Shown here piece after piece: positions 1,061 through 34,905 of a stretch of DNA of 34,905 bases. Numbering within the stretch: position 1 is the stretch's first letter; each line of letters begins with the position of its first letter. Both the position numbers and the translations under genes were made by a program. Source of the DNA: an uncultured Clostridia bacterium. Its GTDB lineage: Bacteria > Bacillota > Clostridia > Oscillospirales > CAG-272. The stretch is from positions 1-34,905 of the forward strand of contig CAJGDZ010000002.1 in the NCBI GenBank assembly GCA_904502055.1, in the 5' to 3' direction. The notes below the pieces were generated by a model. That model saw nothing but the letters and a program-made list of their open reading frames with translations, was not told the DNA's origin and made no database searches.

Positions 1061-1061
1061 T

Positions 1062-1090: not shown

Positions 1091-1091
1091 G

Positions 1092-1124
1092 ATTTCAAAA
1101 AAAAATTTCAACATTGCTTGAAAT
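1092..1124. promoter_or_regulatory. Three phased ATTTCAA/TTGAAAT half-sites overlapping the operon -35
   Basis: ATTTCAA at 1092-1098 and 1105-1111, inverted TTGAAAT at 1118-1124, spaced 13 bp. The last copy coincides with the -35 of the plus-strand promoter. Confidence 0.3.
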
Positions 1125-1146
1125 GTGCAGAGAGGTATGCTAAAAT
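1118..1146 (+). promoter_or_regulatory. Sigma-A-type promoter for the nine-gene catabolic operon
   Basis: TTGAAA (1118-1123), 17-bp spacer, TGC-TAAAAT extended -10 (1138-1146), about 40 nt upstream of ATG 1185. Confidence 0.55.
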
Positions 1147-1184
1147 AAATTTGAATTATTATAAAATCTTAGGAGGATTTTTTC

Positions 1185-2621: not shown

Positions 2622-2637
2622 TCTTGGGAGGTAGAGA

Positions 2638-3726: not shown

Positions 3727-3728
3727 AT

Positions 3729-4568: not shown

Positions 4569-4569
4569 T

Positions 4570-5481: not shown

Positions 5482-6265
5482 CTATAAAAAATCCTATAAG
5501 AGCGCAAAGGGCTATACGCCGCTTTGCAAGATCGGCGAGTGCTCCTTGAAGAAGCTGGAGTTCGGTATCATCGAGCTGGACGGCGGCGAGAGCCTGGACT
5601 TCTACACCGCCGATAAGGAAACGGCTTTTATTATGTTGAAGGGACATTGCAACGTCCTTGTGAACGGGGAAAAGTGGGAGAACGTCGGCAACCGCCAGAG
5701 CGTGTTTGAAAATCGAAGAGCCGAGAGCTTCTATATGCCCATCGAGCAAAACCTGACCGTTGAGGCCATCGACGCCATCAAGATCGCGGTCTGCGCAACG
5801 CCGATCACCGAAAAGACAGAGCCGCAGCTGCTCAGAGCCGACCGCGTGCCCCTCAAAATGCTGGGCAGAGTGCCTTTCCAGAGAGAGACCAGCTTTCTCA
5901 TTGACGGCACCACCAACGCCAAGGTGCTCACCATCGGTGAGGGCTACTGCACCGAGGGTAACTGGGCAGGCTTCCCGCCGCACAAGCACGACGAGGACAA
6001 TATGCCCACCGAGTGCATCGCGGAGGAGATATACTATTTCCTCTTTGACCCCGAGCAGGGCTTTGGCGTGCAGTGTATGTATACCGAGGACGGCTCGCTT
6101 GACGAGGCGTATCGCGTCAAGAGCGACGACCTTGTGGAGTTCCCCTACGGCTATCACACTACGGTTTCCACGCCCGGCTACCAGAGCTATTTTCTGTGGT
6201 TGATGGCCGGTGACTATCAGGGCTTTAATCGCAAGAACGATCCCGATCACGATTGGGTGAAATAA
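5471..6265 (+). CDS. iolB: 5-deoxy-glucuronate isomerase-like protein (KduI/IolB family, IolB type)
   Basis: GNWAGFPPHKHDEDNMPTECIAEEIYYFLFDPEQGFGVQCMYTEDGSLDE closely parallels the B. subtilis IolB core as I recall it (GNWSSYPPHKHDQDN...EETYYH...DPGQGF). About 264 aa, as expected. Overlaps the kinase gene by 11 nt. Confidence 0.8.
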   Translation: MSYNYKKSYKSAKGYTPLCKIGECSLKKLEFGIIELDGGESLDFYTADKETAFIMLKGHCNVLVNGEKWENVGNRQSVFENRRAESFYMPIEQNLTVEAIDAIKIAVCATPITEKTEPQLLRADRVPLKMLGRVPFQRETSFLIDGTTNAKVLTIGEGYCTEGNWAGFPPHKHDEDNMPTECIAEEIYYFLFDPEQGFGVQCMYTEDGSLDEAYRVKSDDLVEFPYGYHTTVSTPGYQSYFLWLMAGDYQGFNRKNDPDHDWVK

Positions 6266-6299
6266 GCGGGAATTTGATTTTTTGGATCAAGGAGAGAGT

Positions 6300-9142: not shown

Positions 9143-9156
9143 AAAGGAGAAAAGCT

Positions 9157-10557: not shown

Positions 10558-10591
10558 ATAAGAATGACAGGCGGTGGTTTTGGGCAAATTA

Positions 10592-10620
10592 TTGACAAAA
10601 GCCACCGCTTGTGGTACAAT
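10592..10620 (+). promoter_or_regulatory. Near-consensus sigma-A promoter for the transporter gene
   Basis: TTGACA (10592-10597), 17-bp spacer, TGG-TACAAT (10612-10620). Confidence 0.65.
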
Positions 10621-10654
10621 GGAGCCGTTATTTTTGGTATTTGGGGATATAGAA

Positions 10655-11623
10655 ATGAATTTGTTTGCACCGATCTTAAATCAAATGATCTTCCTGTTTG
10701 CCTTTATCGTGATCGGCTTTGTCCTGGCGCGCGGAAATTTTGTTCCCGAAAATTCTGCGGCAGTGCTTTCCAAGTTGGAGAGCTTTGTGTTTGTGCCGGC
10801 GCTGGTGATGGGCACCTTCATCAAAAACTGCAACGTGGACGTGCTGGATACCATGTGGAAGATCCTTGTATTGGGAGGCGGCAGCGTGCTGGTTTGCATC
10901 CTGCTTGCCATTCCGCTCTCAAAGCTTTGCTTTAAGGAAGCCTATCTTCGCAAAATGGCGACCTACGGCCTTGCCTTTTCCAACTTTGGTTTTATGGGAA
11001 ACGCCATCGTGCTCGGCGTGTTCGGCGAGGCGATGTTCTTTGAGTACACCGTGTTCACGCTGCCTTTCTGGGCGGCGATCTACGCCTGGGGCGCGCCCGT
11101 GCTTCTCATTGCCGGGGCCTCGGGTGACGAGAGAAAAATTCCGCTTGGCGAGAGGCTGAAGTCCTTTATAAATCCCATGCTGATCGGTATGGTGATCGGA
11201 CTTGTGATCGGCCTTTCGGGGCTGAAGCTTCCGGGAGCGGTCATCTCGGTGATCGACGTGGCAGGTGACTGTATGTCGCCTGTGGCCATGCTTCTGACGG
11301 GTATGACCATCGGACGCCTGGACGTTTTGGCACTGTTGCGAAAGGGAAGACTGTACCTGACAACGGCGGTAAAGCTTTTGATCTATCCGTTGGTCTTTTT
11401 CGGTATCTTCTTGCTTTTGCCCAAAAATTCCTTCTTTACCGACACCTTTTTCAAGTGCGCTATGTGTGTGGCGTCGATGCCCATGGGTCTTAACACCATC
11501 GTCATTCCGGCGGCGTACGGTAAGGATACCACCGATGCGGCGGGTCTGGCGCTGGTTTCGCACGTGCTGTCCATTCTCACCATTCCACTGGCCTTTATGC
11601 TGCTTCAGAAATTTATCCTATAA
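10655..11623 (+). CDS. AEC (auxin efflux carrier) family membrane transporter
   Basis: Preferred ATG 10655 (MNLFAPILNQMIFLF), with GGGGA 7 nt upstream. About 322 aa, hydrophobic throughout with roughly ten segments. The ORF-track N-terminal extension is rejected. Confidence 0.7.
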   Translation: MNLFAPILNQMIFLFAFIVIGFVLARGNFVPENSAAVLSKLESFVFVPALVMGTFIKNCNVDVLDTMWKILVLGGGSVLVCILLAIPLSKLCFKEAYLRKMATYGLAFSNFGFMGNAIVLGVFGEAMFFEYTVFTLPFWAAIYAWGAPVLLIAGASGDERKIPLGERLKSFINPMLIGMVIGLVIGLSGLKLPGAVISVIDVAGDCMSPVAMLLTGMTIGRLDVLALLRKGRLYLTTAVKLLIYPLVFFGIFLLLPKNSFFTDTFFKCAMCVASMPMGLNTIVIPAAYGKDTTDAAGLALVSHVLSILTIPLAFMLLQKFIL

Positions 11624-11627
11624 AGCG

Positions 11628-11660
11628 AAAAGAGCTGAGTCGTTGACTCAGCTCTTTTTG
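11628..11660. terminator. Bidirectional intrinsic terminator between convergent genes
   Basis: AAAGAGCTGAGTC-GTT-GACTCAGCTCTTT flanked by an A-run and a T-run. The 3' arm contains the stop and last codons of the minus-strand hydrolase. Confidence 0.75.
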
Positions 11661-13126
11661 ACACCACCGGTAAAGCCGTGGTAATCCTTTAAGAAGAATT
11701 GCGCGTTTTTGTGCATAGAGAGCGCAAGCGCATCCCCCTTGAAGGCAAGCGTTATTGTTAGATTTCCCACGGAATTGTCGATGATGTTGCATCGGATCGC
11801 GAATGTTGTATCTTCTACCCATGCACCGCTGTTAACGGTGCGGAATTCCCGTCCCGACGGTTCTCCGAGAACATCGCCATAAAAGTGGGTTTCGGGAAAG
11901 GTGGAGAGAAGGTTTTTGCCGATGCCGAACCGGATTTTCTTCTCGCCTCGCGCGTTTTGATAGGTGAATGTTCCTTCGTCCCCGGCAAGGGAAAGCGAGA
12001 GCTCGTCAATCCCCATCGCATTGTTCTCCATGCGGTAGATCACGCCGCTGATTCTCTCAGCAAGAGGAGAGGCGGACTTACCCACAACGCTGGGAAGCGT
12101 AAGATTTTGACAGCGGGCGAGCAGATTTGGATAGATATTCGGGTCGCTGTCCGTTTCGGTATCGAGTTTTTCGATGATCTCCGTCCAAAGCCTATGAAAG
12201 ATCAGCGCTTTGCTGTCGCTTCGCCCTTGTGTGTCGGCGGTGCAGACAAATACAAGATTCTTGTCGGGAAGACAGACTGAGATTTGACCGCCGGCTCCCA
12301 ACATACAGAACGCATTGTCACGAAGAATCCAAAATTGATAACCGTAGCCGCATCGCCAAGGCTCATTTGCCCCTTCGGGGTTGTTGTTGACCTGCTTGGC
12401 GGTGGCTTCCCTCAGGTATTTCTCGGAAATCAGCCGTTTTCCGTTCCATACGCCGCCATTCAGTAAAAACTGGGAGAATTTGGCGAAGTCACGCGTGCTC
12501 AGAAGAAGGGCGGAGCCTGCCCACGCTTCGCGGTCGGGACCGAGAAGACAACGGGATTCTTTGGAAACTTCAAGCTCGCAGAGGATCTCCTCGCGCAGAA
12601 ATTCGTAGAAATATTTTCCCGTGATTCGCCGAACGATCGCACCAAGAACATAGGTGCCACAGCTGTCATAGTTGAAGATCGTACCTGCGGGGTGGTCGGG
12701 TTGCGTGTGGAAATAGGACGCTAGCCAGTTCTTTCCCCGGATATCGGGGTCTCCGTAGGTCGATTGGCTGAAGGGAGTAGTCATTCGGAGAAGGTCGCGC
12801 ACCGTCGTTTCCTTCACATACGGGTGTGTAGCTTCGCTTACGAGATCGGGGAAAAATTTCACGATCTTATCGTGGAGTGAGAGCTGTCCTCGATCGATCA
12901 GAAGTCCGATGGCAATCGAAACAAAGGATTTGGTGGCGGAATACAGGCGATGTGTCTCATCTTGACGGTTGGGCGCCCAGTAAGCTTCAAGAGCAACCTT
13001 TCCGTATCGGAGGATCATACAGCTGTGAAACGGAAGTCCGCTTTCTTCCAAGGCGTCTAAAAGACGGTTGATGCTTTTGGCGGAAATTCCGACCTCGTTT
13101 GGATTTACGGAAATAAAGTCCTTCAT
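11648..13126 (-). CDS. Beta-lactamase-fold serine hydrolase (class C/PBP-like) with an extra C-terminal domain; no signal peptide
   Basis: SxxK nucleophile motif in RLYSATKSFVSIAIG. 492 aa. The N-terminus is hydrophilic. The start overlaps the upstream gene's stop (ATGA at 13123-13126). Confidence 0.75.
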   Translation of the reverse strand: MKDFISVNPNEVGISAKSINRLLDALEESGLPFHSCMILRYGKVALEAYWAPNRQDETHRLYSATKSFVSIAIGLLIDRGQLSLHDKIVKFFPDLVSEATHPYVKETTVRDLLRMTTPFSQSTYGDPDIRGKNWLASYFHTQPDHPAGTIFNYDSCGTYVLGAIVRRITGKYFYEFLREEILCELEVSKESRCLLGPDREAWAGSALLLSTRDFAKFSQFLLNGGVWNGKRLISEKYLREATAKQVNNNPEGANEPWRCGYGYQFWILRDNAFCMLGAGGQISVCLPDKNLVFVCTADTQGRSDSKALIFHRLWTEIIEKLDTETDSDPNIYPNLLARCQNLTLPSVVGKSASPLAERISGVIYRMENNAMGIDELSLSLAGDEGTFTYQNARGEKKIRFGIGKNLLSTFPETHFYGDVLGEPSGREFRTVNSGAWVEDTTFAIRCNIIDNSVGNLTITLAFKGDALALSMHKNAQFFLKDYHGFTGGVKKS

Positions 13127-15045
13127 ATTTTCTCCTTCAGAAAGTCCCAGGAAGGCTCAAGTCCTGCGCGGGAGGCAAGTGACGTGGGAAAGTCGACATC
13201 GCCCGGTTTTTTGTTCAGAATGTTATCCACGAAGCAAACGTCCTTATATCCGTCATCGATCTGGTTGTGGTAATGAAGCGGAATTGCCACGTCATGCAAA
13301 AGGTTGCCGCAGACATCGATGCCTCGACAGCCTTCGTCAAGATAAATACCGCCCGGTGTTCCGTGGCGCTTGGAAAACTGTGAGATGGCGGGGTCATGCA
13401 GGTTTTCCACGCCATAGCCGGCGATCGAAACACCGCCGTAGCCGTCGCCGGTGTAGCCTGAGCTTTCGTGGATATAGTTTCCCTCGATTTTTGTGCCGTT
13501 CATACAGCCAAGGGCATAGATCGCGCCGCCGTCGCTGAGGCTCATCATACAGCGACAGATGTGGTTGTACGAGATGATATTTCGCATACATACCGACGGT
13601 TCGGTCCATGGAGTAGGAAGCTTCGGCCCGGTGGAAATGTCCGATTCTCCCCAGCCCCAGCCGATGCTGATGGCGCTGTAGGGTACGTCGCAGATCTCGT
13701 TGTGCGAAATTTCCACGTCCTGCACGTAGCCGGCGATGATGGCGACCGAGCCGCGAAGCTCGCGTCCGATGTCGTGAATGTAGTTGTTGGCAATCAAGAT
13801 GGCGCGTACAATCTCGCGTGTGTCCTTCGGGTGGTGTGCACGTTCAAGGTAGAAGTCGCCCAAAATGACGGCGTTGCCGCCAATCTCATAAAAGTGATTG
13901 CCTACCGTTCGGCAATCCTCGGCACCAAACTCGAACTGAAGTCCGCCCGTGCCAAGCTGGGTAAACGTACAATTCTCAAAGTTTACGTCCTTGGCGGCAA
14001 GCACACGTATGGCGGAAATAACCTTCTGACAGTCAGCTTCAAAGGGTTTTTCCAACAAAAGTTCCTTTGGAGGTTCGGTGAATTTCATTTGATTGGCTTG
14101 AATTTCGGGTACGCCGTATTTGTGAGGGAAGAGCCAACCGGTGTGCATGAAACGAAGATTTTTGAAGGTGAGGTGGCGGACAGGCTCAGAAAGGGCACCG
14201 CAGATTTCAAAGAGCTGTTCGGTATGCGGAAGCACGATCTCGTGATTTTCGGGGGCGTCGCCGTCTTCCAGACCTACATACAGCATGCGTTCGGTACGGT
14301 CGAAGTACCATTCAAGGGGCTTCCCGAGAAGCTCAAACACGTTTTCGATATAGCTCGGGCAGCTACCGATCTGTACGCCCTCGGCAAAGCGTGCCGAGTG
14401 GAAGGCAGGCTCCTTCGGCTTGATATACAGGCGTCCGTCGGGCAAGGATTGCACGCTCTCTACGGGCACGACACGGTGTACCCAGCCCACCTCAAAAACC
14501 ATTTCCAAATCGCTTACGTTTTTGTAATTGGCAATTTCGGTATGTGTGGTGGCAATGCCGCTATAGTCAATGGCTTCGGCGTCCACGCGCCCTGTGAAGA
14601 ATTTTATAGTTTTTTCTTGCTCACCGGGGAGATAAGAAAACTCATAGTCGGGTGCCTCAAGCACGTCCCATTTGTGGGGCTTACGGTAGGGCGTGGTTGG
14701 GCGTTTTGCGGTTTTGCCGTCGATGTAAAGGTTGCGTGTATATTCGACCTCGGGTAGCTGGACGCGCCAGAGGTTGTCGTGAAAATGGGTAAAGCCCGTA
14801 AGACGCATACCGCCCGAAAAGCCGCTGTTCCCGTCTGCGCCTTCAATAAAAATCGGGTGATCGGGTGAGGGAAGCATCGAGGGATTTATTTTCATAGGCT
14901 CTCGCATGGGCAAAAGTCCTTGCACACAAAGGCGAATGGCTTCTCCCGTTTCCAACTCGTTTTCGGTGGCCTTGATGGCAAAAAGTGCATCCTCAAGTGT
15001 GCGAAAAGCCCCCGTTAAGGTTTCACTGACAATATATTCTCTCAT
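13123..15045 (-). CDS. Right-handed parallel beta-helix repeat protein (probable carbohydrate-active enzyme); no signal peptide
   Basis: 640 aa. Repeated short beta-helix-like turns (NNYIHDIG, ISHNEICDVPYSAISIGWGWG, ISYNHI, IEGNYIHES, VCGNLLHDV). Exact family not assignable by eye. Confidence 0.6.
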   Translation of the reverse strand: MREYIVSETLTGAFRTLEDALFAIKATENELETGEAIRLCVQGLLPMREPMKINPSMLPSPDHPIFIEGADGNSGFSGGMRLTGFTHFHDNLWRVQLPEVEYTRNLYIDGKTAKRPTTPYRKPHKWDVLEAPDYEFSYLPGEQEKTIKFFTGRVDAEAIDYSGIATTHTEIANYKNVSDLEMVFEVGWVHRVVPVESVQSLPDGRLYIKPKEPAFHSARFAEGVQIGSCPSYIENVFELLGKPLEWYFDRTERMLYVGLEDGDAPENHEIVLPHTEQLFEICGALSEPVRHLTFKNLRFMHTGWLFPHKYGVPEIQANQMKFTEPPKELLLEKPFEADCQKVISAIRVLAAKDVNFENCTFTQLGTGGLQFEFGAEDCRTVGNHFYEIGGNAVILGDFYLERAHHPKDTREIVRAILIANNYIHDIGRELRGSVAIIAGYVQDVEISHNEICDVPYSAISIGWGWGESDISTGPKLPTPWTEPSVCMRNIISYNHICRCMMSLSDGGAIYALGCMNGTKIEGNYIHESSGYTGDGYGGVSIAGYGVENLHDPAISQFSKRHGTPGGIYLDEGCRGIDVCGNLLHDVAIPLHYHNQIDDGYKDVCFVDNILNKKPGDVDFPTSLASRAGLEPSWDFLKEKI

Positions 15046-21284: not shown

Positions 21285-23951
21285 ATGATTGTACACGACA
21301 AGTCAAGTGAAGAGGTTCTCCGGGCTCTTGCGGTAAGCCCCGAGGCGGGTCTCACGGCGGAAGAGGCGGCTCTTCGCAAGGAAAAATACGGTGTTAACAA
21401 GCTGAAGGAAAAAAAGAAAAAGACCACGATGCAACGCTTTTTTGACCAGTTCAAGGATGCGATGATCATCATTTTGCTGATCGCGGCGGTCATTTCCTTT
21501 GTTCTGATCTGTGTGGAGAAAAACTGGGGCGAGCTGTTTGAGCCCGGACTCATTCTTCTCATCGTGATCCTCAACGCCATTATGGGCGTATATCAGGAGG
21601 GAAAAGCGGAAAAGGCGCTGGATGCGCTTAAAAATATGTCCGCGCCGCACGCTCGCGTCATCCGCGGCGGTGTGGAAATGGTGATCGATGCCGCCGAGCT
21701 TGTACCGGGCGACATCATCAAGCTGGAGGCGGGCGACTTCGTGCCTGCCGACGCGCGTCTGCTTCAGAGCGTCAGCCTCAAGTCCGAGGAAGCCGCCCTC
21801 ACGGGTGAATCGGTGCCCTCGGAGAAGGATGCCGCCGTCGTAGTGGACGAGAACGCGCCCATCGGTGACCGCACCAATATGGTGTTCTCGGGCTGCAGTA
21901 TCACCTACGGAACGGCGCTGGCCGTTGTCTCGGCTACGGGAATGGATACCGAGATGGGTAAGATCGCCAACCTTTTGGACAGCGAGGAGGACACGCAGAC
22001 GCCGCTTCAGCAGAAGCTGGCGCAGCTTGGTAAGTACCTTGGCTTTATGGCGCTGGCCGCGTGTGCCGTCATTTTTGTTGTGGGACTTCTTAATAAGATC
22101 CCCGTAATGCATATCTTTATGACCTCGGTGTCGCTTGCCGTTTCGGCTATCCCCGAGGGACTTCCCGCCATCGTTACCATCGTGCTTTCGATCGGCGTTC
22201 AGCGAATGGTTAAGAAGAACGCACTCATTCGCCGTCTGCCTGCCGTGGAGACGCTGGGCGGTGCGTCGGTCATTTGCTCGGATAAGACGGGTACGCTTAC
22301 GCAGAACCGTATGACACTTACCAAGGCTTACGTGGACGGCGGCGAGATCGAGCTGATCTCGGCTACCAATTCCGAGTCCGTCCGTCAGCTTCTCAATTAC
22401 GGTACGCTTTGCTGTGACGGCTCGGTCGTCTTTTCGGACGAGGGTGAGCAGCACATCGGTGACCCCACCGAGACCGCGATCGTTGTGGCCTCGCACAAGA
22501 ACGGCTTTGAGAAGGACGCGTTGAACAAGCAGTTCCCGCGTCTTGCCGGAATTCCCTTCGATTCCGACCGCAAGCTGATGTCGACGGTCAACGAGATCGA
22601 CGGCAAGAAGATCGTTATCGTTAAGGGCGCTTTTGATATGATGGCGGTGCGCTGTGTCAAGGGTGACCTTGAGACTGCCAAGCGCATCACCGAGGAGATG
22701 AGCCGTGACGCGCTTCGCGTACTGGCTGTTGCCTACAGAGAAATTGATGAAATTCCCGAGAACCTCACCTCCGAGGAACTCGAAAACGGACTTACCTTTA
22801 TGGGTCTTGTGGGTATGATCGACCCGCCCCGTCCCGAGGCAAAGGCGGCTGTTGCCGTTTGTCGCCGTGCGGGTATCAAGCCGGTTATGATCACGGGTGA
22901 CCACGTGGTCACCGCCTCAGCGATCGCCAAGGAGCTGGGCATTCTCGTGGAGGGTGACCGCGCCATTACCGGTGCCGAGCTTGATGCTATGAGCGATGAG
23001 GAGCTGGATGCGGCGGTTGAGCATATTTCGGTCTACGCCCGCGTTTCGCCCGAAAATAAGATCCGCATTGTCAAGGCTTGGCAGAGAAAGGGTCAGGTCG
23101 TTTCCATGACCGGTGACGGCGTTAATGACGCGCCCGCCCTTAAGGCCGCCGACATCGGATGTGCTATGGGTATCACGGGTACCGACGTTGCCAAGGGCGC
23201 ATCGGATATGACGCTTACCGACGACAACTTTGCTACCATCGTAGACGCGGTGGAGGAGGGAAGAGGCATTTACGCCAACATCAAGAAGGTGGTCGGCTTC
23301 CTTCTGAGCACCAACATCGGCGAGGTGTTCACCGTATTCTTTGCTATGCTGATGTGGCATACGTCACCCCTGCTTTCGATGCAGCTTCTCTGGATCAATC
23401 TTGTCACCGACTCTCTGCCCGCGATTGCGCTGGGTATGGAAGCGGTGGAAAAGGACGTAATGGATCGCAAGCCCAAGCCCAAGAACGAGGGCATTTTCGC
23501 CGGCGGACTGGGTGTCCGTGTGGCCATCCAGGGCGTGATGTTTGCCTTCCTGACGCTGGTTGCCTTCTGGGTAGGAACCGGTCTTGAGCTGGTGCATATG
23601 TTTGACGGCGTGCTTCTTGACGAGGCGCACGAGTGGAATCTTGTGGGCGGTCAGACGCTGGCGTTTATGGTGCTGGCTCTTTGCCAGATCGTTCAGGCGT
23701 ACAATATGCGCTCGGAGCACTCGCTCTTCAAGATCGGCCCGTTCGGCAACAAGAACCTCAACCTTGCCGCACTTGCGTCCACCGCACTTATGGCATTCGT
23801 TCTGTTCGTTCCCGGCGTGCAGGACATCTTCAATCTTCGTTACCTCACCTGGCAGCAGTATCTGATCGGTGTTGTTCTGATCTTCGTGCCGCTTCTGGTG
23901 ATGGAGCTTGGAAAGCTGTTTGGCTTTATCAAGGCACACAATCACAAGTAA
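21285..23951 (+). CDS. Calcium-translocating P-type ATPase (P2A, SERCA/PMCA-like)
   Basis: AAAGGAGAAAAG precedes ATG 21285. Motifs: DKTGTLT phosphorylation site, AIPEGLPA (M4 ion site), [18 protein letters not shown]. 888 aa. Confidence 0.92.
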
Positions 23952-23961
23952 TTCAAATTCA

Positions 23962-23998
23962 CAAGGCGAGGCCGTTCCGGACTCGCCTTGTTATTCTT
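23962..23998 (+). terminator. Intrinsic terminator after the ATPase gene
   Basis: CAAGGCGAG-(11 nt)-CTCGCCTTG followed by TTATTCTT. Confidence 0.6.
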
Positions 23999-24025
23999 GA
24001 CAAAAGAAGACCGGCATGATATAAT
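23997..24025 (+). promoter_or_regulatory. Consensus sigma-A promoter of the esterase gene
   Basis: TTGACA (23997-24002), 17 bp, TGA-TATAAT (24017-24025). Confidence 0.7.
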
Positions 24026-24052
24026 GGCAAAAAAAACGGAAAAGGGGTACAT

Positions 24053-24835
24053 ATGGCATTCTTTCAAATGAACTATCATTCCGATGCGCTTCGCATCGGT
24101 GTTTCGGTCAACGTGATCCTTCCCGAGAAGGCAAAGACCGTGATCGGCATGGAGGCCAATGGTGAGAGCACCTACAAAACGCTTTACCTTTACCACGGGC
24201 TTTCCGATGATCACACCATTTGGATGCGCCGCACCTCGATCGAGCGCTATGCGGCTGAGAAGAATATTGCGGTGGTGATGCCCTGTGTGGCGCGAAGCTG
24301 GTATACCGACACGGCCTACGGTGCAAAGTATCTGACCTTTGTCACAAGGGAGCTGCCCGAGGTCTGCCGTGGCTTTTTCCGCGGAATGTCCGACAAGCGT
24401 GAGGACAATTTGGTGGCCGGTCTTTCGATGGGCGGCTACGGTGCCATCAAGGCGGCGTTGACCCGTCCCGACCTTTTCGGCGGTTGTGCCTCTCTTTCGG
24501 GTGCGCTCGACGTCACCGACTTTTCGCGCCGCAATCGCATTATGGAGGAGTGGCAGGGAATTGCCGGCTTTGATATCACGGGCGGTGAGGATCTGGTGGA
24601 CGGCCCGATGGATCTGTTTGCCATGACCAAGCGCCACCGTGAGGAGGGAAAGCCCTTTCCGCGGCTGTATATGTGGTGCGGTGAGCAGGACGGTCTGGTG
24701 GAGCAGAATGCCCGCTTTGATACGCTTCTGAATGAGCTTGGGGTGGAGCACCTTTACGAAACATCCGAGGGCAATCACTCTTGGAAATGGTGGGATCTTC
24801 ATATTCAAGATGCCCTCCAATATTTGCTGGGTTAA
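24053..24835 (+). CDS. Alpha/beta-hydrolase esterase (esterase D / S-formylglutathione hydrolase-like)
   Basis: 260 aa. LYLYHGLSDD and the nucleophile elbow GLSMGGYGA (GxSxG). Confidence 0.8.
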   Translation: MAFFQMNYHSDALRIGVSVNVILPEKAKTVIGMEANGESTYKTLYLYHGLSDDHTIWMRRTSIERYAAEKNIAVVMPCVARSWYTDTAYGAKYLTFVTRELPEVCRGFFRGMSDKREDNLVAGLSMGGYGAIKAALTRPDLFGGCASLSGALDVTDFSRRNRIMEEWQGIAGFDITGGEDLVDGPMDLFAMTKRHREEGKPFPRLYMWCGEQDGLVEQNARFDTLLNELGVEHLYETSEGNHSWKWWDLHIQDALQYLLG

Positions 24836-26500: not shown

Positions 26501-26529
26501 TTGACAAAGGGGGAATTTTGTTATATAAT
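26501..26529 (+). promoter_or_regulatory. Consensus sigma-A promoter of the Thr/Pro/Glu-rich lipoprotein gene
   Basis: TTGACA (26501-26506), 17 bp, TATAAT (26524-26529). Confidence 0.7.
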
Positions 26530-26560
26530 CAATATGAATCAATTTATTTTGGGGTGTTTT

Positions 26561-27304
26561 ATGAAGAAATGCTTATTGCTGTTTCTTGTGGGACTTTTGG
26601 CCGTTGTTTTGCTGACGTCCTGCAGGAAGGATCCCTCTGAGACCAATTGGTATAAGGATTGGTTTAATCGGGACGAGACTACGACGTTGCCTGTGGAAAC
26701 GACGACGGAGCCGAAGGAAACAACGACGGAGCCTGTCGATATTACGGAGCCGGAGGAAACAACATCTGTGCCCGCGGAAACGACGCTTACGCCCGAGGAG
26801 ACCACCCTCACGCCCGAGGAGACTACGACTGCTCCGCCCGAAACAACGACCGAGCCCGATTGGAATTGGGATTATGATTATGATTACGATCCGCCTGCGG
26901 TGACGACCACAAAGCCCTCCGAAACCACGGCAACGCCCGAGGAGACGACCGTGCCTGAGGAGACGACCGTGCCTGAGGAGACGACCGCGCCCGAGGGGCC
27001 TGCCGATCCCGAGGCGGTGTTTACCATTACTTACGTTTTGAACGGCGGTAGGCTTCCGGACGATGCTGTTGACCGCTTCAATGGCTACTCGCCCGTGCCG
27101 CTTCCCACGCCGACTAGAGCGGGATACTCTTTTCAGGGCTGGTATACGGTGGCCGATTTTTCGGGTCATGCCGTGGACGAGATCGCTTTCGGAACCTCCT
27201 GCGATCAGATCTTTTACGCCAAGTGGAAATCCCTTGAGCCCGAGGAGTCTATGCCCGGACTCTGGTTCCCCATTATTCCGTTGCCGTCGGACAGTGACAA
27301 ATGA
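26561..27304 (+). CDS. Lipoprotein with long Thr/Pro/Glu-rich repeat linker and a C-terminal Listeria-Bacteroides (Flg_new-type) repeat-like domain
   Basis: Preferred ATG 26561 (MKKCLLLFLVGLLAVVLLTSC lipobox). ETTTEP/PEETT repeats and the unusual DWNWDYDYDYDPP motif. C-terminal FTITYVLNGG...RAGYSFQGWY...IFYAKW matches the Flg_new repeat pattern. Confidence 0.75.
   Translation: MKKCLLLFLVGLLAVVLLTSCRKDPSETNWYKDWFNRDETTTLPVETTTEPKETTTEPVDITEPEETTSVPAETTLTPEETTLTPEETTTAPPETTTEPDWNWDYDYDYDPPAVTTTKPSETTATPEETTVPEETTVPEETTAPEGPADPEAVFTITYVLNGGRLPDDAVDRFNGYSPVPLPTPTRAGYSFQGWYTVADFSGHAVDEIAFGTSCDQIFYAKWKSLEPEESMPGLWFPIIPLPSDSDK
26789..26830 (+). repeat. Imperfect 2 x 21-bp in-frame tandem repeat (TPEETTL/TPEETTT)
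   Basis: acgcccgaggagac is shared at 26789 and 26810; the last 7 nt of each unit differ. Confidence 0.8.
26939..26992 (+). repeat. 3 x 18-bp in-frame tandem repeat (EETTVP/EETTVP/EETTAP)
   Basis: gaggagacgaccgtgcct occurs twice perfectly (26939-26956 and 26957-26974). The third unit (26975-26992) has 2 mismatches. Confidence 0.9.
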
Positions 27305-28601: not shown

Positions 28602-28631
28602 TTGACGCGAAACGGGGCGTCGTGATATAAT
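28602..28631 (+). promoter_or_regulatory. Sigma-A promoter of lipoprotein paralog 1
   Basis: TTGACG (28602-28607), 18 bp, TGA-TATAAT (28623-28631). The inverted repeat GATATTT-N7-AAATATC (28560-28580) lies just upstream. Confidence 0.6.
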
Positions 28632-28683
28632 TTTACCGTAAAATACGAATTTGCGCAAGGATTGTGCAGGGAAAGGAATGCGA

Positions 28684-30192
28684 ATGAAAACAGTAAAGGC
28701 TTTCTCTTTTTTGTTGACGCTTCTGATGCTGATCTCCGCCTTTGTCGCGTGCGGCAATACGCCGGCGGAAACCACGGGGAAGCCGGGAGGCTCGTCCGTA
28801 GACAAGCCCGATGACGATCAACAGGAGATCGAGGACACCGTTCCCACCGATCTGAATTACGCGGGGGAAACGGTCACCTTCCTGACGCGTGACAACAAGG
28901 AAAAATATAAGTATGAGCTGGCGTGTGACGAGCTTCTGAACGACACGCTGTACGACGCGATCCACTATCGCAACATTGATGTGGAAACGCGCCTGGGTCT
29001 CAAATTCAGGACCCTGGGACGGGACGGCTCCTACAGCAATTTCGCACAGTGGAACGAGGCGCTTTCGATCTCGGTTCTGACCAACACCGGTGACTATGAC
29101 GGTGCGGCGTTCTATCTGTCCACGGGCAGCTCGCTGGCCAAGGATGGCATCTTTTATAATCTTTTTGAGCTTAGCGACGATACAAACGGCTACCTGAATT
29201 TCGAAAAGCCCTGGTGGAACCAGAGCATGACCGAAGAGCTTGCCGCTTTTGGCTCGCTGTTTTTTGCGGGCGGCTCGCTGACCGTCAGCCAGGTAGAGGA
29301 CGGTATATGCGTCTTCTTTAACCGCGATATGTTTAACGAGCTGTACCCCGGAGAGAGAGACGCGACGCTGTATCAGCTTGTCCGTGACGGAAATTGGACG
29401 GCGGACAAGATGGCGGCTTACGTTTCGGAGGCTTGGACCGACGTCAATTCCAACGGCGTGATCGACGACGGTGACATTGTCGGCACGAGAAATCACGCGA
29501 TGGGTAATTCCGCAGGTCAGATGGATGCGTGGGTGGTCGGTATGGGGCTTCGCTATACCGAGACCAATGCATACGGTGAGCCCGAGATCGCTCTTCTGAG
29601 CGGTAACATCGTTCCCGCCTATGAAAAGGTACGTAACATCTTCGGCAATAACCCCGGTGCTCTTCTGACTACCGAGGAGGCGGTGGAAACGACCATAGAA
29701 AACGGCAACGTGCTCTTCTACACCACGGCACTCAACCAAGGCTCTGAGATGCGCAATTCTACCGTCAATTTCGGCGTGCTTCCCATTCCGAAGTACGATG
29801 CGGATCAGGAGGACTACTACACCTGCTTCGGCAACGAGTCCTCGGCGATCGCGGTATGCTCCAACCTTGGCGATGACAGAGCCGCTATGGTGAGCGCGGT
29901 GCTGGAGCTTCTCTCCGCGGAGGGCTACAAGCAGGTGCTTCCCGTATATTACGGAACGGTTCTCAAGGGTCACTATTCGCGCGAGCAGGCCGATGCCGAA
30001 ATGTACGACAAGATCCTCAGCTCCTTCGTGTTCTCCTTTGGCTTTGCCTATTCCACACACAATCTCGGTGCGATCGGAAGCATTTTCCGCGATCTGTCGC
30101 CCACCTTTGATATGCAGAATTATATCGACAGTAACAAGGTTACTTGGTCGAACAAGCTGACGGAGCTTCTTTCTGCACTTGAAGCCGTATAA
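28684..30192 (+). CDS. Paralog 1: large extracellular solute-binding-type lipoprotein (family-1 carbohydrate ABC receptor-like)
   Basis: GGGAAAGGA lies 7 nt before ATG 28684. Lipobox SAFVAC. Blocks YELACDELLNDTLYDAIHYRNIDVE, VLTNTGDYD, KPWWNQSM, FFNRDMFNEL, VRDGNWTADKM, DVNSNGVIDDGD, GVLPIPKYD and KGHYSREQADAEMYDKI match my recollection of the ~500-aa Firmicutes sugar-binding lipoproteins. Confidence 0.75.
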   Translation: MKTVKAFSFLLTLLMLISAFVACGNTPAETTGKPGGSSVDKPDDDQQEIEDTVPTDLNYAGETVTFLTRDNKEKYKYELACDELLNDTLYDAIHYRNIDVETRLGLKFRTLGRDGSYSNFAQWNEALSISVLTNTGDYDGAAFYLSTGSSLAKDGIFYNLFELSDDTNGYLNFEKPWWNQSMTEELAAFGSLFFAGGSLTVSQVEDGICVFFNRDMFNELYPGERDATLYQLVRDGNWTADKMAAYVSEAWTDVNSNGVIDDGDIVGTRNHAMGNSAGQMDAWVVGMGLRYTETNAYGEPEIALLSGNIVPAYEKVRNIFGNNPGALLTTEEAVETTIENGNVLFYTTALNQGSEMRNSTVNFGVLPIPKYDADQEDYYTCFGNESSAIAVCSNLGDDRAAMVSAVLELLSAEGYKQVLPVYYGTVLKGHYSREQADAEMYDKILSSFVFSFGFAYSTHNLGAIGSIFRDLSPTFDMQNYIDSNKVTWSNKLTELLSALEAV

Positions 30193-30214
30193 TAACCCCT
30201 TTCCTTTTTGTTAG

Positions 30215-30260
30215 GGTGCCACGGGCACCCGGGGCTGCCGCCTTGCGGCAGCCTTTTTTT
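30215..30260 (+). terminator. Tandem-hairpin intrinsic terminator after paralog 1
   Basis: GGGTGCC-ACG-GGCACCC, then GGCTGCCG-CCTTG-CGGCAGCC, then T7 (30254-30260). Confidence 0.8.
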
Positions 30261-30373
30261 GACGGAATCTCCATGTTTTATGACAGAAAATCCATTTTAA
30301 ACTCTAAAGGAGTTATTGTATAATAAAAATGAAAAATACATATTTTTACGTTTTGCTCCGATTCGAAATAAAA

Positions 30374-30408
30374 GTAAAAAATACAATAAAAAAGGTAAAA
30401 AATGCAAT
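30374..30408 (+). repeat. Two 14-bp direct repeats phased 21 bp apart just upstream of the paralog 2 promoter
   Basis: GTAAAAAATACAAT (30374-30387) and GTAAAAAATGCAAT (30395-30408), one mismatch. Confidence 0.7.
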
Positions 30409-30436
30409 TCCGTATATTTTTTTATTATGTTATAAT
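30408..30436 (+). promoter_or_regulatory. Probable promoter of paralog 2 (good extended -10, poor -35)
   Basis: TGT-TATAAT (30428-30436). The -35 position reads TTCCGT. An alternative TTTAAA-17-TATAAT lies at 30296-30324. Confidence 0.45.
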
Positions 30437-30484
30437 AAAATCAAACCAAACGGAAAGCTATTTGCATAGCAGAAAGGAAGAACC

Positions 30485-31996
30485 ATGAAATCAGCCAAAA
30501 TTTTTTCGCTTGTTCTGGCGGTTCTGATGCTTGTCACATCGCTCGTCGCGTGTGCCGACACGCCGGGCGAGACGACCGGGCAAAAGGGAAATCAGAGCAC
30601 GGTGAACGGAGACGATGACCGTCAGCAGATTGGGGATACCGTTCCGACCGACCTTGCCTATCCCGGCGAAACGGTGACCTTTTTTGTCCGTGATCAAGCC
30701 GATCGCTATAAATACGAGCTGGCCTGTGACGAGCTGCTCAACGACACGCTTTTTGATGCCATTCATTACCGCAATATTGACGTGGAGACGCGGTTGGGTC
30801 TGAAGATCCGGACTGTCGGTCAGAACGGCGCCTACGAGAACTTCAGCAAGTGGAACGAGACGCTTTCCACCTCGGTGCTTACCAATACGGGCGACTATGA
30901 CGGTACGGCTTTCTATCTCTCGACCGGAAGCGCACTGGCCAAGGACGGCATCTTCTACAACCTTCTGGAGCTGACCGATTACACGGACGGTTATTTGAAT
31001 TTTGACCAGCCCTGGTGGAATCAAAGTATGACCGAGGAGCTGGCCGCCTTTGGTGCGCTCTTCTTTGCGGGCGGCTCGCTGACCATCACGCAGGTCACTG
31101 CCGGTGGCTGTGTGTTCTTCAACCGTGATTTCTTCAACGAGCTTTTCCCCGAAGAGGGAGACGCGACGCTGTATCAGCTTGTCCGCGACGGCAAGTGGAC
31201 GGCGGATAAGATGGCCGCTTACGTTGCCGAGGGCTGGACTGACGTCAACTCCAACGGTGTGATCGACGACGGAGACGCCGTCGGCACGCGCAACCATGCC
31301 ATCGGTAAGGCGGCAGGGCATATGGACGCGTGGATCGTGGCGATGGGACTTCGCTTTACCCAGACCAACGTGTACGGCGAGCCTGAGCTTGCGCTCCTGA
31401 GCGGCAACGTTTTTCCCGCCTACGAAAAGGTGCGTAACATCTTCGGCAACAACCCCGGCGCGTACCTTACCACCAACCAGGCCAACGAGACCTGCTTTGA
31501 GAACGGAAACATGATGTTCCTTGCCGGCGTACTCGGCCACGGCTCAGAGCTTCGCAACACCACGGTAAATTACGGCGTGCTTCCCATTCCGAAATATGAT
31601 GAGGCACAGGATGATTACTATACCGGTTTTGGTAACGATGCTTCGGCGCTTGCCATCTGCTCTAACCTCGACAGCGACCGAGCCGCCATGGTGAGCGCGG
31701 TGCTTGAGGTGCTTTCGGCCGAGAGCTACAAGCAGGTGCTTCCCGCCTACTACGAAACGGTACTCAAGGGACATTATTCGCGCGAGCAGGCGGATGCCGA
31801 GATGTACGATAAGATCCTTGGATCCTTTGTGTTCTCGTTCGGCTTTGCTTATTCCACGCACAACCTCGGCGGCATTGGAAGCATCTTCCGCGATCTCTCT
31901 CCCACCTTTGATATGCAGAATCATATCGATAGCAATAAGGAGACCTGGAACGCGCAGCTCACCGAGCTTTTGGAGGCACTTGAGGCGGTTTCCTGA
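30485..31996 (+). CDS. Paralog 2: solute-binding-type lipoprotein
   Basis: GAAAGGAAG precedes ATG 30485. Lipobox SLVAC. Collinear with paralog 1 over the full length, with most aligned residues identical by eye. Confidence 0.75.
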   Translation: MKSAKIFSLVLAVLMLVTSLVACADTPGETTGQKGNQSTVNGDDDRQQIGDTVPTDLAYPGETVTFFVRDQADRYKYELACDELLNDTLFDAIHYRNIDVETRLGLKIRTVGQNGAYENFSKWNETLSTSVLTNTGDYDGTAFYLSTGSALAKDGIFYNLLELTDYTDGYLNFDQPWWNQSMTEELAAFGALFFAGGSLTITQVTAGGCVFFNRDFFNELFPEEGDATLYQLVRDGKWTADKMAAYVAEGWTDVNSNGVIDDGDAVGTRNHAIGKAAGHMDAWIVAMGLRFTQTNVYGEPELALLSGNVFPAYEKVRNIFGNNPGAYLTTNQANETCFENGNMMFLAGVLGHGSELRNTTVNYGVLPIPKYDEAQDDYYTGFGNDASALAICSNLDSDRAAMVSAVLEVLSAESYKQVLPAYYETVLKGHYSREQADAEMYDKILGSFVFSFGFAYSTHNLGGIGSIFRDLSPTFDMQNHIDSNKETWNAQLTELLEALEAVS

Positions 31997-32079
31997 TTCT
32001 GTGATCTGCCGTGGCGCGGCGAGAATGTTTTTGAGCGGAATTTTGCCGTTTTTCTAAGCCGATTATGTCCGTTTTCGTA

Positions 32080-32108
32080 TTTACTTTTATTATGGGTCTT
32101 GCTATAAT
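32080..32108 (+). promoter_or_regulatory. Promoter-like element inside the paralog 2-3 spacer, upstream of the CU-rich motif
   Basis: TTTACT (32080-32085), 17 bp, TGC-TATAAT (32100-32108). Confidence 0.4.
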
Positions 32109-32114
32109 AAATAC

Positions 32115-32209
32115 AGAACGCGCGAGATGCGTAAAAGAATTCGAAAATTGTGTTATAACCCCTTTCCCCTTTCCCTTGGCTACTGCCGTTTTGGCAGTAG
32201 CCATTTTTT
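32115..32209 (+). ncRNA. Candidate ~95-nt small RNA or 3'UTR-derived RNA carrying an unpaired CU-rich motif
   Basis: The predicted start lies just after the 32103-32108 -10 box. CCCCTTTCCCCTTTCCC at 32159-32175. Perfect 10-bp terminator stem GGCTACTGCC/GGCAGTAGCC (32178-32202) followed by T6. No ORF. Confidence 0.3.
32178..32209 (+). terminator. Strong intrinsic terminator (serves paralog 2 and/or the candidate small RNA)
   Basis: Perfect 10-bp stem, 5-nt loop, A then T6 (32204-32209). Confidence 0.85.
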
Positions 32210-32234
32210 GAAGGAAATTCTTGTTAAAATAAAC

Positions 32235-32263
32235 TTGTCAAAACGTGTATTTTGTGTTAAAAT
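32235..32263 (+). promoter_or_regulatory. Sigma-A promoter of paralog 3
   Basis: TTGTCA (32235-32240), 17 bp, TGT-TAAAAT (32255-32263). Confidence 0.6.
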
Positions 32264-32308
32264 AGGTATGGATGGAACGTTTCTTAAAAAAAGAAAGGAA
32301 GAAAAACA

Positions 32309-33811
32309 ATGAAAATGGTAAGAATTACGGCAGGGATCCTGGTGCTTTTGATGCTGCTCGGTTCGCTTGTCGCGTGTGGCGGCACCCCTGCGGAGACCGA
32401 AGAAAGGGGAAGTGCAACGAGACCTGCGGCAGATGAGGACGAGGTGCAGGACACCGTTCCCGACGACCTTCGATTTGACGGAGAGACCGTTACCTTTCTG
32501 ATCCGTGACAACAAGGATCAGTACAAGTATGAGCTTGCTTGCGAGGAGCTTCTCAACAATCCGCTTTACGATGCCATACATTATCGGAATATCGATGTGG
32601 AGACCCGACTGGGTCTTAAGTTCAAGACCGTGGGTCAGAATGGCGCGTATACCAATTTCAGCAAGTGGAATGAGGTGCTCTCGACCTCGGTGCTGACCAA
32701 CACCGGCGATTTTGACGGCGCGGCGTTTTATCTTTCCACGGGAAGCGCGCTTGCCAAGGACGGCATTTATTACAATCTGCTTTCGCTTACCGACTATGAG
32801 GGCGGTTATCTGAACCTTGAAAAGCCCTGGTGGAACCAGACGCTGGTCGATGAGCTTGCCGCGTACAGCACGCTCTTTTTTGCGGGCGGCTCGCTGACCA
32901 TCAGCGAGGTGGACGACGGCGCTTGTATTTTCTTTAACCGCGACCTCTTTAATCAGCTTTATCCCGAGGACAGAGACACGGCACTCTATCAGCTGGTACG
33001 TGACGGCAAGTGGACGGCAGACAAGATGGCGAGCTACGTTGCGGGGGCCTGGACCGATATGAATTCCAACGGTGCGATCGATGACGGCGACGTAGTCGGA
33101 ACCCGTATCCACGCCATTGGCAAGTCGGCGGGCATTATGGACGCGTGGGTGGTGGCCATGGGTCTGCGCCTGACCGAGACCAACGTGTACGGCGAGCCCG
33201 AGATCGCCCTTTTGAACAGTAACATTCTTCCTGCCTACGAAAAGGTGCGCGGCGTGTTCGGCAACAATCCCGGTGCGCTTCTCGTGGCTGAAATGGGCGG
33301 TGAGACCGACCTCAAGAACGGCAATATGCTGTTCAAGACCGCCACCTTCCACCACGGTGTGGAGATGAAGGAGTCGGTGGTGAACTACGGCGTGCTTCCC
33401 ATCCCGAAGCTTGACGAGGAGCAGACAGAATATTATACCGGATTCGGCAACGAGGCCTCTGCCGTTGCCATTTGCTCCAATCTCACGGATGACAGAGCCG
33501 CTATGGTGAGCGCGGTGCTCGAGCTTTTGTCGGCCGAGGGCTACAAGCAGGTCATTCCGGTCTACTACGGAACCGTTCTGAAGGGGCACTACTCGCGTGA
33601 GCAGGCGGATGCCGAGATGTACGATAAGATCCTTGGATCCTTTGTGTTCTCCTTCGGCTTTGCTTACTCCAGCCAGAGCCTTGGCGGCATCGGAAGCATC
33701 TTCCGCGATCTTTCGCCCACCTTTGATATGCAGAATCATATCGACAGTAACAAGGAAACGTGGAATACCAAGCTGACCGAGCTTTTGGAGGCTCTGGAGG
33801 CCATTTCGTAG
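32309..33811 (+). CDS. Paralog 3: solute-binding-type lipoprotein
   Basis: GAAAGGAAG precedes ATG 32309. Lipobox SLVAC. Collinear with paralogs 1 and 2. Confidence 0.75.
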   Translation: MKMVRITAGILVLLMLLGSLVACGGTPAETEERGSATRPAADEDEVQDTVPDDLRFDGETVTFLIRDNKDQYKYELACEELLNNPLYDAIHYRNIDVETRLGLKFKTVGQNGAYTNFSKWNEVLSTSVLTNTGDFDGAAFYLSTGSALAKDGIYYNLLSLTDYEGGYLNLEKPWWNQTLVDELAAYSTLFFAGGSLTISEVDDGACIFFNRDLFNQLYPEDRDTALYQLVRDGKWTADKMASYVAGAWTDMNSNGAIDDGDVVGTRIHAIGKSAGIMDAWVVAMGLRLTETNVYGEPEIALLNSNILPAYEKVRGVFGNNPGALLVAEMGGETDLKNGNMLFKTATFHHGVEMKESVVNYGVLPIPKLDEEQTEYYTGFGNEASAVAICSNLTDDRAAMVSAVLELLSAEGYKQVIPVYYGTVLKGHYSREQADAEMYDKILGSFVFSFGFAYSSQSLGGIGSIFRDLSPTFDMQNHIDSNKETWNTKLTELLEALEAIS

Positions 33812-33821
33812 CCTGTTTTTG

Positions 33822-33854
33822 AAGCTGTTGTCCCAAAAGGGCAACAGCTTTTTT
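33822..33854 (+). terminator. Intrinsic terminator after paralog 3
   Basis: AAGCTGTTG(T)CCC-AAAA-GGGCAACAGCTT followed by a T-run to 33854. Confidence 0.8.
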
Positions 33855-33878
33855 GTTAAAGAAAAAACGAAAAAGCCC

Positions 33879-33907
33879 TTGCCAAAATTCGGGTTTTGTG
33901 ATATAAT
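33879..33907 (+). promoter_or_regulatory. Sigma-A promoter of paralog 4
   Basis: TTGCCA (33879-33884), 17 bp, TGA-TATAAT (33899-33907). The GTGATATAAT core is the same as in the paralog 1 promoter. Confidence 0.6.
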
Positions 33908-33962
33908 ATCAAAACAATGACAATTTCAGCTTGAAATTAGTACATAAGGAAAGGGAAAAATT

Positions 33963-34905
33963 ATGAAATTTGTACGAGTTTTGGCTCTCCTTCTGGTGCT
34001 TTTGATGCTGCTGCCGGCCTATGCCGCCTGCGGTGATAAGCCCGAGGAGACGACGAAGGCTCCGCAGAGCAACGTAGACGATGACCGTGACGGCGAGCAG
34101 GATACGGTTCCCGCTGACCTCAAGTACAACGGTGAGACGATTACGTTTTTGGTGCGCGGCGGCTCCAACATGAATCAGTATGAGCTGGCTTGTGAGGATT
34201 TGATCAACGATCCGGTTTACGACGCCATCCATTACCGTAACATTGACGTAGAGAACCGTCTTGGCGTCAAGGTCAAGGCCGTTGCCCGAAACGACGAGTT
34301 CCCCTACACGGATTGGAACAACGCGCTTTAGGTATCGGTGCTTACCAACACCGGTGACTACGACGGTGCGGCCTTCTATCTGTCGGCGGGCACCTCGCTT
34401 GCCAAGGAGGGCATCTATTACAACCTTCTTTCTCTTACGAAGGAGGAGGGTGGCTACCTCAACTTTGAGAAGCCCTGGTGGAACAGCTCCATGGTGGATG
34501 AGCTCAGCGTTTACGGCGCAATGTTCTTCGCCGGAGGCTCGCTGACCATTACACAGGCGGCCAGCGGTGTATGCGTGTTCTTCAACCGCGACCTCTTCAA
34601 CCAGAAGTATCCCGATGACAGAGACTCCACGCTTTACCAGCTGGTAAGAGATGGCCAGTGGACGGCTGACAAGATGACCTACTATGTTTCCAACTGCTGG
34701 GATGACCTCAACTCCGACGGTCTTGTAGGCCCCGGTGACGTTGTAGGTATCAAGAGCCTTGGTAACGCGGCCGGTCAGATGGACGCGTGGGTTCTGGCTA
34801 TGGGTCTGGATTTCACGAGAACCGACGTGTTCGGTGAGCCCGAGCTGGTTCTCTTTAACAGCCACACCGTTCCCGCTTACGAGAAGGTGCGCGGCATCTT
34901 TAACA
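33963..34905 (+). pseudogene. Paralog 4: solute-binding-type lipoprotein interrupted by one in-frame TAG (34329-34331); runs off the window
   Basis: Lipobox AYAAC. The frame is open from 33963 to 34905 except for TAG at the codon where paralogs 1-3 encode Ser (TCG/TCC/TCG). Homology continues immediately after it (VSVLTNTGDYDGAAFYLS...). Confidence 0.7.

Follow-up and report, generated by a model that had tools for sequence, protein, structure and literature searches.

We examined a 34,905-nt window of contig CAJGDZ010000002.1 (GCA_904502055.1) from an uncultured Clostridia bacterium, in which four paralogous lipoprotein genes lie in tandem on the plus strand at positions 28684–34905 (window numbering is used throughout, except where a fetched contig or locus is named by its L-number). 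They open a tandem array of genes for membrane-anchored solute-binding lipoproteins, and structural modelling combined with sequence comparison places their products in a strongly divergent branch, about 500 amino acids (aa) long, of the CUT1-type (family-1) sugar-binding lipoproteins. With a probability of about 0.6, we read the array as a battery of orphan receptors for glycan oligosaccharides that feeds an ATP-binding cassette (ABC) translocator encoded elsewhere.

The four proteins showed pairwise amino acid identities of 61–77%, well above chance. Every copy carries the pattern (L/F/Y)(V/A)AC at residues 20–23 (FVAC in copy 1, LVAC in copies 2 and 3, and YAAC in copy 4), and the lipobox cysteine, Cys23, was invariant among 40 homologues; read as a motif, this points to the anchoring of lipoproteins through a lipobox cysteine in the Gram-positive manner. 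An earlier sequence-only reading of the same DNA had described four same-strand paralogues with a lipobox cysteine and a set of shared residue blocks, and we recovered all of these, the sole deviation being QPWWN in copy 2, where KPWWN had been quoted.

An AlphaFold2 model of copy 2 built from a 40-sequence alignment reached a mean predicted local distance difference test (pLDDT) score of 86.7 and a predicted TM (pTM) score of 0.82; the only disordered segment, with pLDDT values below 50, comprised residues 22–43, directly after the lipobox. Foldseek comparison of this model with the PDB returned 820 matches at E ≤ 1e-3, and all 50 of the matches listed were family-1 solute-binding proteins (SBPs) or fusion constructs of maltose-binding protein (MBP). 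They included UgpB, a Bifidobacterium longum subsp. infantis family-1 SBP, RafE, and MalE, together with a dinucleotide-binding SBP, a cyclodextrin-binding protein, and a beta-L-arabinobiose-binding protein, and the top matches had E values of 4e-12 to 5e-10 (best 3.9e-12), target-normalised TM scores of 0.5–0.68, and identities of 10–16%. The predicted structure is that of a type II periplasmic-binding protein, with two alpha/beta lobes and a hinge, so that the array products consist of a signal peptide with its lipobox cysteine, a disordered linker of approximately 20–25 residues, and a two-lobed type II binding-protein fold. Structure prediction and fold comparison had been proposed as a check on the receptor interpretation, and the outcome was an SBP fold rather than a different one.

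An exhaustive hidden Markov model (HMM) search with the family profile retrieved 9846 representatives of 50%-identity clusters, 4400 of them at E ≤ 1e-30 and nearly all about 500 aa in length; copy 1 itself scored 833 bits against the family HMM. A precomputed Pfam domain was present in none of the 120 close homologues listed, and those with names were mostly annotated as "hypothetical protein" and came from metagenome-assembled genomes (MAGs) of Clostridia or Oscillospiraceae. When the close-family profile (A1) was compared with PDB sequences, only the signal peptide was matched (E = 0.96). Distant family members provided the connection to recognised SBPs: 12 of 59 matched SBP_bac_1 (best 5e-8) and 9 of 59 matched SBP_bac_8 (best 3e-10), all weakly, and a profile of distant members matched the arabino-oligosaccharide-binding protein AbnE (6rjy) with an E value of 4.9e-5 and MalE with 4e-3. 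The AbnE alignment covered the DxNGDG loop and the YG(I/V)LPxP motif. Some of the wider relatives bear the NCBI name "extracellular solute-binding protein", and about half of the named homologues are "hypothetical". The link to SBP_bac_1 and SBP_bac_8 thus runs only via structure and distant family members, and homology to recognised family-1 SBPs was traced through these intermediate sequences; it is because the structural match and this sequence link are both present that we assign the array proteins to a divergent CUT1-type branch. The EF-hand-like loop DVNSNGVIDDGD was considered as a novelty of the family and rejected, since this DxNGDG loop can be aligned with that of AbnE and is a frequent feature of family-1 SBPs.

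The rest of the array was visible in a syntenic relative from another metagenome, a 91-kb contig (L003/L007/L040) with a DNA identity of approximately 80–90% to the window. The two share the upstream genes for a P-type ATPase, an esterase, a HAD hydrolase, an AraC regulator, a lipoprotein with a Flg_new domain, a 147-aa open reading frame (ORF), and MntP. The whole array of the relative comprises eight lipoprotein genes, designated copies A–H: copies A–E are followed by a gene for a GH78-like alpha-L-rhamnosidase of 656 aa that lacks a signal peptide, and then by copies F–H. After the array come an IS30-type transposase gene and, at L040 14456–17828, Amidase_2/SPOR, CBM_5_12, and reverse transcriptase (RVT_1, 369 aa) genes with small ORFs, a segment that resembles part of a prophage and may include a diversity-generating retroelement. 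Neither a permease nor an ABC ATPase gene was found within the relative's array or in the 10 kb after its last copy, and no ABC importer component was found among the other genes of the window. The description of these genes as orphan receptors in the sequence-only reading, which had recommended inspecting the rightward flank for permease genes, agrees with this result.

A one-genome-per-species scan yielded 32 loci from about ten uncultured Eubacteriales/Clostridia/Oscillospiraceae MAGs of deer, human (Hadza), and other faecal origin. Several family loci per genome were present in the scanned MAGs, with further tandem arrays of five copies (L030), three copies (L021, L022, and L023), and two copies (L010 and L029). 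The nearest relatives often came from the same array or genome, which indicates that the family expansions are lineage-specific. A survey of 119 ORFs within 4.5 kb of family genes at 24 non-redundant loci identified AraC (7), CBM96 (5), MntP (4), ABC_tran (4), DUF218 (4), MatE (3), and LRR_5/BspA-type leucine-rich repeat (LRR) proteins (3) as the commonest neighbours, and Bac_rhamnosid6H occurred twice. The AraC association was not accepted as a wholly independent signal, because it stems in part from synteny that related species have kept around a single locus. By our reading of the sequences, the four ABC_tran neighbours belong to transporters of the ABC-2 or zinc type or represent a soluble ATPase, and BPD_transp_1 was not among the 25 neighbour families listed.

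Seven loci of the wider family, whose members showed 23–40% identity to the window proteins, gave a similar picture. At five of the seven, the neighbours included GH123, GH4, melibiase, a GH_cat protein, sulfatases, and GFO/IDH oxidoreductases, as well as sugar isomerases, kinases, and AraC regulators; the other two had unrelated housekeeping neighbours. Further family members were often close by, and none of the seven loci contained a permease. Across the approximately 31 loci (24 plus these seven), no CUT1 permease was found within 4.5–10 kb on either side, and linkage to two BPD_transp_1 membrane subunits was seen neither there nor in the window or the relative's array.

The gene neighbourhoods also bear on the ligands. 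At L027, a family member is immediately preceded by a full GH78 gene; at L024, another has an AraC regulator and a cytoplasmic GH28-like/beta-helix protein beside it; L005 contains GH127; and five loci have large secreted proteins of the CBM96 or LRR kind. Signal peptides are absent from the GH78-like and GH28-like neighbours but present in the CBM96 giants. Because these hydrolases next to the arrays are cytoplasmic, import of the ligand is implied. Our best guess from the neighbourhoods is that the ligands are rhamnose-containing or pectic oligosaccharides, given the GH78-like gene in the relative's array and the GH78, GH28-like, GH127, and CBM96 neighbours elsewhere.

According to the proposed mechanism, each paralogue would be transcribed separately, be held at the membrane by its lipid anchor and flexible linker, and bind its own fragment of a plant or host glycan. 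The loaded receptor would then dock on a remotely encoded CUT1-type translocator, consisting of two membrane subunits and an ATPase and common to many receptors, and the imported sugar would be broken down by cytoplasmic hydrolases. Several points weigh against this interpretation. Pfam and NCBIfam scans of the four copies gave no SBP_bac_1 or SBP_bac_8 match at E ≤ 1; the best matches, DUF7297 (E = 0.11) and ExtJ (E = 0.21), lay in the signal or linker region and were unusable. The Pfam comparison suggested by the sequence-only reading therefore came out negative, and the family-1 identity that it had drawn from the residue pattern stood as regards the fold (Foldseek and the distant members) but not as a direct pattern match. 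An hhalign comparison of A1 with E. coli MBP gave a probability of 1.7%, and the only stretch aligned was the equivalent VNYGV..P motif. The ligand class is drawn entirely from gene neighbourhoods, and the shared remote permease, although our best reading, is deduced from absence at the loci, so the partner translocator is putative. A regular expression for the EAA loop found no match in 605 kb of fetched loci, a search for which the data contained no positive control. Lastly, the end of the array was read from the relative only, as the window's own right flank lies beyond the sequence.

An ordinary multi-SBP ABC locus, with its permease genes just past the right edge, would be compatible with a window that stops inside copy 4. 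We regard this as very improbable, since in the relative, whose orthologues share 88–96% aa identity with the window genes, the array goes on and ends at the transposase and phage-like genes without a permease, and the other family loci likewise lack permeases. A more serious competitor, though still an unlikely one, is that these SBP-fold lipoproteins have no transport role and serve either as stand-alone surface proteins for glycan capture and retention or as sensors outside the cell that work with a signalling partner in the membrane. The missing cognate permeases at about 31 loci, the frequency of secreted CBM96 and LRR giants among the neighbours, and the divergence of the family from SBP profiles are all in keeping with such a function. 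It fits less well with the several members found in operon-like arrangements alongside catabolic enzymes of the cytoplasm (GH78-like; GH_cat with a kinase; GFO/IDH oxidoreductases), which need their substrate inside the cell. Neither a histidine kinase nor a chemoreceptor recurred among the 119 neighbouring ORFs at the 24 loci, and the neighbouring regulators are cytoplasmic AraC types.

The sequence-only reading had also raised the possibility of a surface-lipoprotein family kept for its variability, for example in the face of phages or the host. We considered this in the form of antigenic or phage-receptor variation. The genes are multi-copy, tandem, and surface-exposed, they differ in copy number between strains, one copy contains a nonsense codon, and lineage-specific tandem expansions occur in other genomes, all of which such a family might display. 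The ratios of nonsynonymous to synonymous substitution (dN/dS), calculated by the Nei-Gojobori method, argue strongly in the other direction: they were 0.06–0.10 for the four orthologue pairs and 0.09–0.18 for paralogues, resembling those of the housekeeping flanking genes (MntP 0.07, AraC 0.03). The array genes are under ordinary, strong purifying selection, and the paralogues are old and have kept one-to-one orthologues with no sign of homogenisation. Switching devices were also lacking, with no repeat tracts in the promoters or 5' ends, no convincing inverted repeats flanking the promoters, and no invertible promoters, and the promoters of all copies look constitutive. Neither diversifying selection nor switching devices of the kind seen in Mycoplasma Vsp/Vlp systems were thus found, and maintenance for variation has very little left in its favour. 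The searches for repeats gave only weak AT-rich matches, which were rejected as probable chance occurrences; one of them is an inverted repeat (17 nt, 82% complementary; 30313–30329/30419–30435) that brackets the stretch between two promoter-like sites upstream of copy 2.

Comparison of the array with that of the relative, another check that had been proposed, showed that copies 1, 2, 3, and 4 are one-to-one orthologues, in order, of copies A, B, D, and E, whereas the window lacks an equivalent of copy C. A hybrid spacer separates copies 2 and 3, and alignment and blastn co-linearity showed that its two parts meet at a 38-bp terminator hairpin (32177–32203) that is repeated after B and after C in the relative. 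This junction at a repeated terminator shows that one whole gene was lost or gained by recombination between terminator repeats, and copy number differs between strains through this route. The same spacer has a promoter-like sequence, TTTACT-17-TATAAT, at 32080–32108, about 70 nt before the terminator, and the two could represent a short transcription unit or the relic of a gene end; the arrangement is also present in the relative's B-to-C spacer. In addition, TAACCCCTTTCC, located just after the copy 1 stop codon, appears again in the 31997–32308 spacer as TATAACCCCTTTCCCCTTTCCC.

Each of the four genes is a separate unit of transcription that has an extended -10 promoter of the sigma-A type and a GGAAAGG-type ribosome-binding site (RBS), and copies 1–3 also have a terminator (Table 1). 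The spacers ahead of copies 1, 2, 3, and 4 measure 263, 292, 312, and 151 bp. The promoter scan and the spacer lengths (151–312 bp) bore out the earlier description of a separate spacer and TG-extended -10 promoter for each copy; the poor -35 box noted for copy 2 was evident in the sequence, and the terminator scan placed hairpins where they had been reported, directly after copies 1 and 3 and about 180 nt after copy 2. The scan gave another candidate promoter upstream of copy 2, at 30296–30324. For copy 1, we chose the ATG at 28684 as the start on the basis of the RBS GGAAAGG and the orthologue start MKTVKAF; TTG 28651, the mechanical ORF start, and ATG 28678 are in-frame alternatives. When the full window was searched against Rfam for leader RNAs and riboswitches, such as might lie in the AT-rich spacers, 0 families were found.

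Table 1. Genes and predicted regulatory features of the lipoprotein array (window positions)
Feature	Position	Strand	Description
Promoter, copy 1	28602–28631	+	TTGACG-18-TATAAT, TG-extended; promoter scan; site kept in relative (L007 3016–3045)
Copy 1	28684–30192	+	502 aa, SBP-fold lipoprotein; orthologue of relative's copy A, 88% aa identity
Terminator, copy 1	30231–30262	+	Hairpin 30231–30255, 11-bp GC-rich stem and T-run; kept in relative (L007 4645–4669)
Promoter, copy 2	30408–30436	+	Poor -35 TTCCGT (30408–30413), 17-nt spacer, TGtTATAAT (30428–30436); read by eye
Copy 2	30485–31996	+	503 aa; AlphaFold-modelled copy; orthologue of copy B, 94% aa identity
Hybrid spacer	31997–32308	+	312 bp; left part matches relative's B-to-C spacer, right part C-to-D
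Terminator, copy 2	32177–32203	+	Hairpin about 180 nt 3' of copy 2 (scan)
Promoter, copy 3	32235–32263	+	TTGTCA-17-TAAAAT, TG-extended; promoter scan
Copy 3	32309–33811	+	500 aa; TAG stop; orthologue of copy D, 94% aa identity
Terminator, copy 3	33821–33858	+	Intrinsic, hairpin 33821–33851; kept in relative (L007 9859–9888)
Promoter, copy 4	33879–33907	+	TTGCCA-17-TATAAT, TG-extended; promoter scan; hexamers and 17-nt spacing identical in relative (L007 9917–9945)
Copy 4	33963–34905	+	Leaves window at right edge; orthologue of copy E, 96% aa identity

Copy 4 contains an in-frame TAG at 34329–34331 (NAL*VSVLTNTGD) that the sequence-only reading had overlooked. Copies 1–3 have serine at this position, and so does contig L001 (TCG), which differs from the window at only three of 4706 nt over 30200–34905 (99.94% identical); relative to L001, the TAG is a single C-to-A change at 34330. 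TAG is a genuine stop in the source organism, since copy 3 terminates at this codon. The remainder of copy 4 is conserved, with a dN/dS of 0.06 against its orthologue, and for this reason the TAG must be very recent, a polymorphism, or an error: copy 4 in the window is either a very recent nonsense mutation or pseudogene, a strain polymorphism, or the product of a sequencing or assembly error.

Other genes of the window were annotated alongside the array. Upstream of it, 26501–27304 encodes the lipoprotein with a C-terminal Flg_new (Listeria-Bacteroides repeat) domain, preceded by Thr/Pro/Glu-rich tandem repeats of 18–21 nt (PEETT-type); alignment with the relative's orthologue is confined to the last 100 residues (55%), which suggests that the repeat region evolves fast. 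An RpiR-regulated catabolic cluster at 190–11623 includes an FAD-linked oxidase, a 4Fe-4S protein, a class II aldolase, a PfkB kinase, KduI/IolB, an FGGY kinase, a 467-aa protein with ETF and ETF_alpha domains, a 472-aa protein without a Pfam match (9139–10557), and an AEC-family (Mem_trans) transporter. On the minus strand, 13126–15045 encodes a 640-aa protein with a right-handed beta-helix match, adjoining a 492-aa beta-lactamase-family protein (11651–13126); the 640-aa protein is possibly a carbohydrate-active enzyme, which would fit the glycan theme of the family's neighbours. A 3.9-kb indel separates these close strains at window 23951–24053 and L003 1543–5205, where the relative has an extra 1220-aa gene, without a Pfam match, between the P-type ATPase and esterase genes that is absent in the window.

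Among known systems, the array proteins resemble the family-1 (CUT1) SBPs AbnE (6rjy), S. pneumoniae RafE, the B. longum subsp. infantis protein 3quf, E. coli UgpB, and MalE in their type II fold, lipobox, and glycan-utilisation neighbourhoods, and they share the aligned DxNGDG loop and a YG(V/I)LPxPK motif with AbnE and MBP. They differ in length (about 500 aa versus approximately 400–430 aa), have only 10–16% identity to solved SBPs, fall below all Pfam and NCBIfam thresholds, and, unlike family-1 SBPs, have no adjacent permease pair at the examined loci.

Orphan SBPs that use remotely encoded membrane components have been documented, as PMC8110962 notes in citing the Pseudomonas Cbc system, in which the three SBPs CbcX, BetX, and CaiX work with CbcWV; the Bifidobacterium LT-SBP paralogues are a further precedent (PMC8110962). 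E. coli MppA uses OppBCDF (PMC3173086), and HisJ and ArgT with HisQMP exemplify several SBPs on one translocator (PMC8110962, PMC3173086). These systems are similar in that receptor genes occur without membrane components of their own, the paralogues presumably widening the substrate range. They involve few extra receptors, however, and the transporter keeps its own linked SBP, whereas here the roughly 30 examined loci are all unlinked, the family comprises thousands of clusters, and arrays reach at least eight copies. The Bug family of Bordetella, receptors of tripartite tricarboxylate transporters (TTTs), is another large orphan expansion (PMC11452294). It is comparable as a lineage-specific, mostly orphan expansion that far outnumbers its known membrane partners, but Bug proteins belong to another SBP family, serve TTT secondary transporters, and are periplasmic proteins of Proteobacteria, not Firmicutes lipoproteins and not ABC-type. 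What sets the present family apart is its invisibility to standard SBP profiles, its very large size, the absence of permease linkage at all of the approximately 31 loci examined, and monocistronic arrays of up to eight genes. To our knowledge, and within a limited literature search, no earlier description exists of CUT1-type sugar receptors uncoupled in this way across a whole family.

Extended to the family, the receptor interpretation takes the form of hub-and-spoke import, in which one or a few translocators would be supplied by dozens of unlinked receptors in each genome, a proposal that we advance tentatively, at slightly under even odds. We rate it as likelier than its counterpart, in which a large clade of ~500-aa SBP-fold lipoproteins in uncultured gut Clostridia would be wholly freed from ABC transporters and devoted to surface glycan capture or signalling; this is doubtful, as is the corollary that the tandem arrays would be a Gram-positive counterpart of batteries of surface glycan-binding proteins.

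Oscillospiraceae/Eubacteriales-type Clostridia of the gut play a major part in fibre degradation, but few have been cultured, and their glycan uptake is usually inferred from operons with an SBP plus two permeases. If a hub translocator is shared among unlinked receptors, operon-based predictions of substrate range in these organisms would be systematically incomplete, and specificity would be gained or lost one monocistronic gene at a time, as in the one-copy difference between the close strains compared here. If, on the other hand, the proteins are not transport receptors, they would show the SBP fold put to a new purpose on the surface of Gram-positive cells.

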